Under the pieces are notes generated by a model. The model did not search any database and had not been told where the DNA came from. It saw only the letters and a program-made list of their open reading frames with translations. From IMG/VR virus record IMGVR_UViG_2537561618_000006: a stretch of 15,817 bases of DNA; one strand, 5' to 3'. A program made the translations under genes and the position numbers. The stretch is from a virus. Taxonomy: Duplodnaviria; Heunggongvirae; Uroviricota; Caudoviricetes. The first letter of the stretch is position 1. Each line of letters opens with the position of its first letter. This document shows positions 313 to 1,197 of this stretch, piece after piece.

Positions 313-1197
313 TCAGGCTGACAGATCATCGTTTCCGATGGAAGCATAATAAGCTTTTTCTGCTCCTGCCGGAGGGATGTGGCCCAGCCTTTCCAGCAAT
401 CGTCGATTGTTATACCAGTCCACCCACGTGAGTGTGGCCAGTTCCACTTCTGCACGGTTTTTCCAGCTCTTACGGTGTATTACCTCCGCTTTGTAAAGAC
501 CATTGATGCTCTCCGCCATCGCGTTGTCATACGAGTCGCCTGTACTTCCTGTTGATGCCAGTAATCCGGCTTCCTTAAGCCGCTGTGTGTAGGCCAGCGA
601 TACATACTGAGAACCTTTATCACTGTGATGGACCGTGCCGGACGGTCGACGGGCCCATAACGCCTGCTCCAGTGCATCCAGCACGAATGTCGTTTCCATG
701 GACGATGAGACCCGCCACCCCACGATGTATCCGGCAAACACATCAATGATGAACGCCACATAGACGAAGCCCCGCATGTGCTGACGTAAGTAAAATCAGC
801 CACCCACAGCTGGTCAGGTCGTTCTGCCACGAACTGACGGTTTACGCGGTCGCCTGCGGCAACGGCTTTCCGGCTGATGGTCGTACGGACCTTTTTACCC
901 CGGAGAACACCGGCAAGTCCCATAACCGCCATGAGACGTGCCACAGTGCATCTGGCCACTCTGATACCTTCCCGTAACAACTGACGCCAGACTTTACACC
1001 GTATACCTTGTGATTTTCATCGTATACGCGCTGTATCTCTTTCTTCAGCCAGTCATCGCGCTGCGCACGGGCACTGCGTTTATCCGGATGATGTCGCTGT
1101 TGCTGACAGTGGTAATACGTTGACGGGGCAATATGCAGTTCGCTGCATAGCGGTCCGCCCCGTACTGCTCACGCAGCTTATCCAGCAGTGGCATCAT
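313..1197 (-). pseudogene. IS3-family transposase OrfB (DDE integrase core), broken by three single-base frame changes
   Basis: The OrfB reading frame starts at the ATG at 1197 overlapping the orfA stop, and shifts near 1157, near 995 and near 775. Pieces translate as [13 protein letters not shown] / GPLCSELHIAPSTYYHCQQQRHHPDKRSARAQRDDWLKKEIQRVYDENHKVYGV / KVWRQLLREGIRVARCTVARLMAVMGLAG...[11 protein letters not shown] / [23 protein letters not shown]...[11 protein letters not shown]...[22 protein letters not shown].... The final segment is back in the same frame as the start. Confidence 0.75.

Follow-up and report, generated by a model that had tools for sequence, protein, structure and literature searches.

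Three frame changes in orfB of an IS629 copy on a draft Shigella flexneri contig: one lineage-wide deletion and two probable consensus errors

The IS629 copy, its ends and its source contig

The window analysed here is a stretch of 15,817 nucleotides and is identical with the whole draft contig AFHC01000022.1 (assembly GCA_000213475.2), a product of whole-genome-shotgun sequencing. AFHC00000000 is the record of S. flexneri 4343-70 (PMC5429569). The 380-aa truncated tape-measure product of the window (12911-14053) was recorded for one contig only in the public collection, which was again AFHC01000022.1. No statement of the sequencing platform was found in the literature on strain 4343-70; we take the 2011 sequencing project of this strain to have been pyrosequencing.

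The window carries an IS629 copy near its left end, followed by a partial IS600 and a prophage. Coordinates of the features are collected in Table 1. IS629 belongs to the IS3 family and has the isoforms IS1203 and IS3411. Intact IS629 makes OrfA and, via a programmed -1 frameshift at an A-run that is aided by the ALIL pseudoknot, the OrfAB transposase. The window copy matched thousands of annotated E. coli copies at 98.3-99.2% nucleotide identity. The matching copies are labelled 'IS3 family transposase' and 'programmed frameshift' in RefSeq, with an 'AL1L pseudoknot'. A 61-mer across the 4-base deletion of the window copy (see below) was found exactly in a feature of pCP301 labelled 'IS629 ORF2'.

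The initial annotation had called the inverted repeats and orfA intact, and both statements were confirmed. The repeats are imperfect, about 25 bp long and identical to those of the reference copies; at the orfB-side end, the first 50 alignment columns contained zero differences. The complete orfA protein was recorded, as an exact match, in 127 blocks of the public collection and is widespread across Shigella genomes. The ALIL region covers the A6 run (plus-strand T6, 1197-1202), the orfA stop codon and the orfB ATG. Its alignment contained one gap only, at the base lost at 1157/1158, which falls in the predicted stem. A programmed -1 frameshift signal, consisting of the A-run and the downstream pseudoknot, is thereby predicted to be present in the window copy.

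A 3-bp target duplication was not found at the window IS629: its flanking triplets are AAC (left) and CAC (right), in place of the CAC present at either end of the orthologous copy in other strains. The AAC/CAC mismatch fits a recombinant or chimeric junction. The 270 bases to the left of the element are a phage-type integrase fragment that in CP026765 adjoins a different IS629 copy (L007), and the right flank, with IS600 and the prophage, matches the L015-type locus. Judged from these matches, the hybrid flanks would have arisen in strain 4343-70 by rearrangement through IS629, or else in the draft contig by a chimeric join. IS629-mediated rearrangement is known in S. flexneri (PMC1550401).

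Table 1. Features of the IS629 copy, changes of frame in orfB and private indels elsewhere in the window (positions in window numbering)
Feature	Position	Strand and frame	Details
IS629 copy (IS3 family)	271-1574	minus	1304 bp; intact E. coli copies 1310 bp, Shigella copies 1306 bp
Terminal inverted repeat, orfB-side end	271-295		25 nt, 92% complementary to 1550-1574
Terminal inverted repeat, orfA-side end	1550-1574		25 nt; pairs with 271-295
orfA	1194-1520	minus	108 aa, intact; HTH_Tnp_1, Pfam PF01527, E=1.1e-10
ALIL pseudoknot (RF01497)	1124-1239	minus	Rfam 111.3 bits (gathering score 50), E=1.1e-28
OrfB aa 1-13	1159-1197	minus, frame -3 (starting frame)	tblastn
OrfB aa 15-69	992-1156	minus, frame -2	tblastn
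OrfB aa 64-142	777-1016	minus, frame -1	tblastn; end of HTH_21 and WVADFTY motif
OrfB aa 144-296 and stop codon	313-774 (tblastn 316-774)	minus, frame -3 again	most of the rve catalytic core
Frame change 1, single base missing	1157-1161	minus	window G+C4; nearest orthologous copies G+C5; E. coli G+A+C4
Frame change 2, 4-base deletion (ACGC/CGCA/GCAC)	995-998	minus	reference ACTTT[ACGC]ACACC, between short AC repeats
Frame change 3, one C of CC missing	774-776	minus	coding strand CATGGCGGGG to CATGCGGGG
Private indel, IS600 orfB	2451-2456	plus	A6; A5 in every other copy
Private indel, tape-measure gene	13919	plus	CCC to CC
Private indel, tape-measure gene	14330	plus	TT to TTT
Private indel, tape-measure gene	14419	plus	AA to A
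Private indel, tape-measure gene	14452	plus	CC to C

The frame path of orfB

For frame mapping, the intact 296-aa OrfB of the CFT073 copy was used as tblastn query against the window. Nucleotide alignments were made with two intact 1310-bp copies, from CFT073 (L002) and O145:H28 (L003), both of which are annotated 'programmed frameshift'. OrfB homology in the window was complete (aa 1-296), but instead of one contiguous rve transposase it comprised four segments in three frames. The Pfam rve domain (E=1.4e-20) was found only on the 154-aa terminal ORF fragment. Exactly three gaps were seen against the intact copies: 1 base at 1157/1158, 4 bases at 995/996 and 1 base at 775. The summed loss of 1+4+1 = 6 bases accounts for a length of 1304 bp as compared with 1310 bp. 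By these alignments, the window IS629 is a degraded member of the IS3 family and is predicted to be not functional.

The initial annotation had described an orfB that crosses all three frames and returns to the starting one, with changes near 1157, 995 and 775; both the path and the three positions were borne out by tblastn and nucleotide alignment. It had taken all three for single-base changes, which is right for 1157 and 775 but not for the middle change, a 4-base deletion. Two changes had been assigned to GGGG runs. A true run contraction was seen at 1157/1158, while the GGGG run beside 775 is unchanged. Alignment to reference IS629 copies, named there as a possible refutation of the frame assignment, displayed the same three gaps and upheld the assignment. 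A contiguous orfB with a wrongly assigned frame was ruled out by these gaps together with the four tblastn segments.

The return to the starting frame restores nothing: 5 stop codons interrupt that frame within the interval 775-1157, and an ORF beginning at the orfB ATG runs only to 1045. The 'in-frame result' of the initial annotation is an arithmetic sum only and yields no restored product. The chance that three frameshifts sum to 0 mod 3 is roughly 1/4 to 1/3, and a zero-sum pattern is therefore not remarkable. The net frame return over -6 bases is a coincidence without functional meaning. The idea of three independent, frame-restoring deletions as an unusual coincidence is not supported as a meaningful one, in view of these odds, the intervening stop codons and the differing origins of the three changes.

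Origins of the frame changes and companion indels

For the 4-base deletion, 15 Shigella copies of IS629 were aligned, taken from ten 20-kb loci that had been reached through the exact orfA protein. All 15 carried the deletion. It was also present in an EIEC plasmid copy (L001), to which RefSeq assigns the label 'IS3 family transposase, frameshifted'. The 61-mer spanning the deletion matched 14 E. coli records exactly over its full length; among the exact records listed, the sources were human hosts or FDAARGOS, and some records were plasmids carrying ipaH4.5. The same 61-mer was exact in plasmids of S. flexneri, S. sonnei, S. boydii and S. dysenteriae, including pCP301. With the intact 65-mer as query, two sampled Shigella pINV plasmids yielded only best matches with a 4-base gap. 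In the literature on IS629 frameshifts in S. flexneri, no statement on a defective Shigella IS629 was found. The deletion was taken as real because it is common to Shigella and EIEC copies in dozens of independent assemblies. Judged by this distribution, it is genuine, old and lineage-wide, and 1306 bp is the ordinary length of IS629 in Shigella and EIEC.

In this variant, the deletion at 995/996 would part the N-terminal portion of OrfB from the DDE core, which lies in the third frame. From what is known of the IS3 family, the only products would be OrfA and a truncated OrfAB devoid of the catalytic domain. The 1306-bp form would be non-autonomous, yet it keeps orfA, the frameshift signal and both inverted repeats. 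With intact ends, such copies could still be acted on by a transposase supplied in trans, and homologous recombination can certainly use them as substrates.

Copies of 1306 bp with the 4-base deletion (L005, L009, L010, L012, L013, L015) occupied four distinct chromosomal sites, and the target duplications at these four sites were perfect over 3 bp (CAA, GTG, CGC and CAC). IS3-family transposases are usually ascribed a cis preference. It is conceivable, though rather doubtful, that a transposase acting in trans has repeatedly moved a full-length but dead IS3-family element to these sites and to the virulence plasmids of all four Shigella species. Alternatively, the 4-base deletion may have spread after insertion via gene conversion between copies, which is plausible because alleles swap at the orthologous locus between strains.

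The IS629 copies at the orthologous prophage locus fell into two allele blocks among strains (compared with L006, L019 and L020), which differed at about seven linked sites (430, 768, 771, 1157, 1161, 1369 and 1410 in window numbering). One of these sites is an A/C polymorphism within the stem of the ALIL pseudoknot. The two-block pattern suggests ectopic gene conversion between IS629 copies. The orthologous element was also found interrupted by another IS3-family element in CP026765 (L006/L014) and CP020753, after IS629 position 166-168; in CP026765 this nested insertion is equivalent to window 436-438.

The distribution of the two single-base deletions was examined in the same manner. In none of 4798 E. 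coli records (about 19,700 places) was the best match to a 61-mer with the 1157 deletion exact, and the corresponding 61-mer with the 775 deletion had an exact best match in none of 4429 records (about 18,200 places). A 39-mer of the 1157 deletion had zero exact matches in genome_contigs and metagenome_contigs. For the ORFs made by the deletions (154 aa, 313-777; 150 aa, 480-932), nothing was recorded by exact look-up, as expected of private ORFs, although the choice of start codon could also explain it. In five assemblies with the same IS629-IS600-terminase locus (L015, L016, L019, L020 and L022), IS629 is 1306 bp long and has CC at 775 and either C5 or A+C3T at 1157. Over 9.6 kb, the closest of them (L015, L016 and L022) were separated from the window by only 4-5 substitutions and by three single-base indels common to all of them, namely CC vs C (775), C5 vs C4 (1158-1161) and A5 vs A6 (2451-2456). 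Among the copies compared, the two single-base deletions are private to the window contig.

At 1157/1158, the change relative to the nearest orthologues is a contraction of the coding-strand run from G5 to G4 (C5 to C4 at 1158-1161 on the plus strand). Relative to the E. coli reference copies, it resembles the loss of a base adjoining the run. Shigella copies were about evenly split between A+C4 and C5 at this site. At 775, the coding strand has G for GG, and the adjoining GGGG run (plus-strand C4, 770-773) is unaltered. Repeat copies were polymorphic at 768, 771 and 773, near 775, and for A or C at 1157. As a general cause of the indels, polymorphism among mixed copies was rejected: it fits 775 and 1157 and fails at the tape-measure sites. 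Two substitutions near the 3' end of orfB, at 321 (C to A) and 365 (T to C), were seen in no other IS629 copy examined and may reflect true differences of the strain or additional consensus errors.

Five further private indels were located outside IS629. The A6 run at 2451-2456 cuts the IS600 OrfB (ORF 1797-2459) to 220 aa, and with the 1085-bp IS600 of the window as query every best plasmid match was 1084 bp long; this change is probably an error of the same kind as the IS629 deletions. The four tape-measure indels span 534 bases and split the gene (12911-15647) into three ORFs. In all ten other loci, which were reached via the tail-tube protein, the gene is intact and encodes 912 or 1013 aa. 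These two lengths differ through a separate polymorphism, about 303 bp in size and located near window 13240.

Three other assemblies, compared over 5416-15817, differed from the window by 3-4 substitutions and the same four single-base indels. Among eight other assemblies (13 pairwise comparisons), 0 indels and 0-17 substitutions were counted. The window has 7 private indels and about 5 private substitutions in 15.8 kb. Each of the seven indels alters a run of at least 2 bases (2 to 1, 5 to 4, 5 to 6, 3 to 2, 2 to 3, 2 to 1 and 2 to 1). All seven also fall in repeats of S. flexneri genomes, namely in IS629, in IS600 or in 10852-15817, a stretch with 99.76% identity to a second prophage of these genomes. 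None of them was found in the 8462 unique bases, despite more homopolymer runs of at least 5 bases there (52 vs 38). The probability that all seven fall in repeats by chance is (7355/15817)^7 = 0.005.

The portal gene of the prophage is also split, by T6 at 6034-6039 compared with T5 in E. coli FDAARGOS_943, into pieces of 351 aa (ORF 5051-6106) and 137 aa (the ORF that follows). The same split is present in most other Shigella assemblies of the prophage in which portal genes were called, and for this reason it was read as inherited. On this distribution the portal split is a real pseudogene, unlike the private indels.

Interpretation and comparison with known systems

The two single-base deletions in the IS629 orfB are very probably consensus or run-length errors made over collapsed repeat copies, and the same applies to the indels in IS600 and the tape-measure gene. 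This reading is supported because the deletions are private to one assembly and absent from the orthologous locus in independent assemblies, because they are accompanied by five private run-length indels of the same type, and because all of these are confined to repeats. The contig joins the flanks of two IS629 loci (L007 on the left, L015 on the right) and for that reason looks like a build through a collapsed repeat. The initial annotation had offered homopolymer indel error as the main alternative to biological deletion; this is well supported for the two single-base changes and wrong for the middle one, a real deletion found in many other copies.

The window IS629 would represent the Shigella/EIEC variant, either as a single copy or as a collapsed consensus, and the real copy in strain 4343-70 would have the usual 1306-bp form. 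Errors would arise at places where the assembly merged reads from many near-identical copies of a repeat. At 1157, a flow-space or column consensus over a mixture of G-A-C4 and G-C5 could lose the A as well as the fifth C, which would yield G-C4.

Several observations run against error. Five of the seven indels affect short runs (2-3 bases), unlike the classic sites of long-homopolymer error. Private substitutions at 6147 and 8021, in unique sequence, show that the strain is not identical to the comparators. The hybrid flanks could also stem from a genuine rearrangement mediated by IS629. Neutral decay is possible in a defective prophage and in an orfB already killed by the 4-base deletion.

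The two deletions could accordingly be real private mutations of 4343-70, namely slippage indels fixed without selection in a dead orfB, in IS600 and in a defective prophage, in which case the frame sum would likewise be a coincidence. OrfB was non-functional in every Shigella copy examined, and other Shigella copies carry lesions of their own (a 14-base deletion in L004, three single-base deletions in L013_3152). The portal gene is broken in most other Shigella assemblies with a portal called, and real-looking private SNPs are present on the contig. This explanation is nevertheless unlikely. It would have to accommodate an indel count above the substitution count in the window, when the eight other assemblies show 0 indels alongside up to 17 substitutions. 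It would also have to explain why the equally dispensable unique prophage genes at 2659-10852 contain no indels (p about 0.005) and why four indels cluster in 534 bases of a gene found intact at all ten other loci. The source, moreover, is a draft contig running through multi-copy repeats. We infer errors rather than real private mutations. A hypermutator strain with defective mismatch repair was also considered and is unlikely, because 8.5 kb of unique sequence is free of indels.

That the three frame changes form a selected, compensated set, giving a novel protein with N-terminus and catalytic C-terminus in one frame and with an altered middle or recoding, has next to no probability: its only support is the net change of -6 bases, and it is excluded by the starting-frame stop codons and the early end of the orfB-ATG ORF, by a shifted middle that encodes normal OrfB in the other two frames at 95-98% identity with no new sequence evolved, and by the lack of conservation of the shifts, two of the three being present in no other copy and only the 4-base deletion being shared.

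The three-shift pattern therefore holds no novel biology. It is found in a known insertion sequence of the usual Shigella form, with one old, real deletion and two probable errors. Clusters of false frameshifts can occur in draft contigs that traverse IS elements and duplicated segments of prophages. In the window, the presumed errors create at least three apparent pseudogenes (the IS629 orfB pieces, IS600 orfB and the tape-measure gene). Such contigs are best discounted in scans for unusual frames and in counts of Shigella pseudogenes.

With the intact 1310-bp IS629 of CFT073 and O145:H28, the window copy shares 98-99% identity over the full length, the inverted repeats, the layout of orfA and orfB, and the frameshift region with A-run and ALIL pseudoknot. 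It differs in being 6 bases shorter, in having orfB in four pieces over three frames and in having no matching 3-bp target duplication.

The 1306-bp Shigella/EIEC variant, exemplified by 'IS629 ORF1/ORF2' on pCP301 of S. flexneri 2a 301, is closer. The 4-base deletion and the exact orfA protein are common to both, as are three substitutions specific to Shigella (376, 377 and 379) and the location in the chromosome, beside IS600 and the prophage terminase. The window copy differs from this variant by the absence of two more single bases (775 and 1157/1158) and by the private substitutions at 321 and 365.

The indels themselves were compared with the run-length and collapsed-repeat errors of draft assemblies. 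In contrast to classic homopolymer errors, most of the affected runs in the window are short (2-3 bases), and error is inferred here by sequence comparison. The likeness lies in private single-base run changes in both directions, restricted to multi-copy sequence, and in apparent pseudogenes whose counterparts are intact in all finished relatives.
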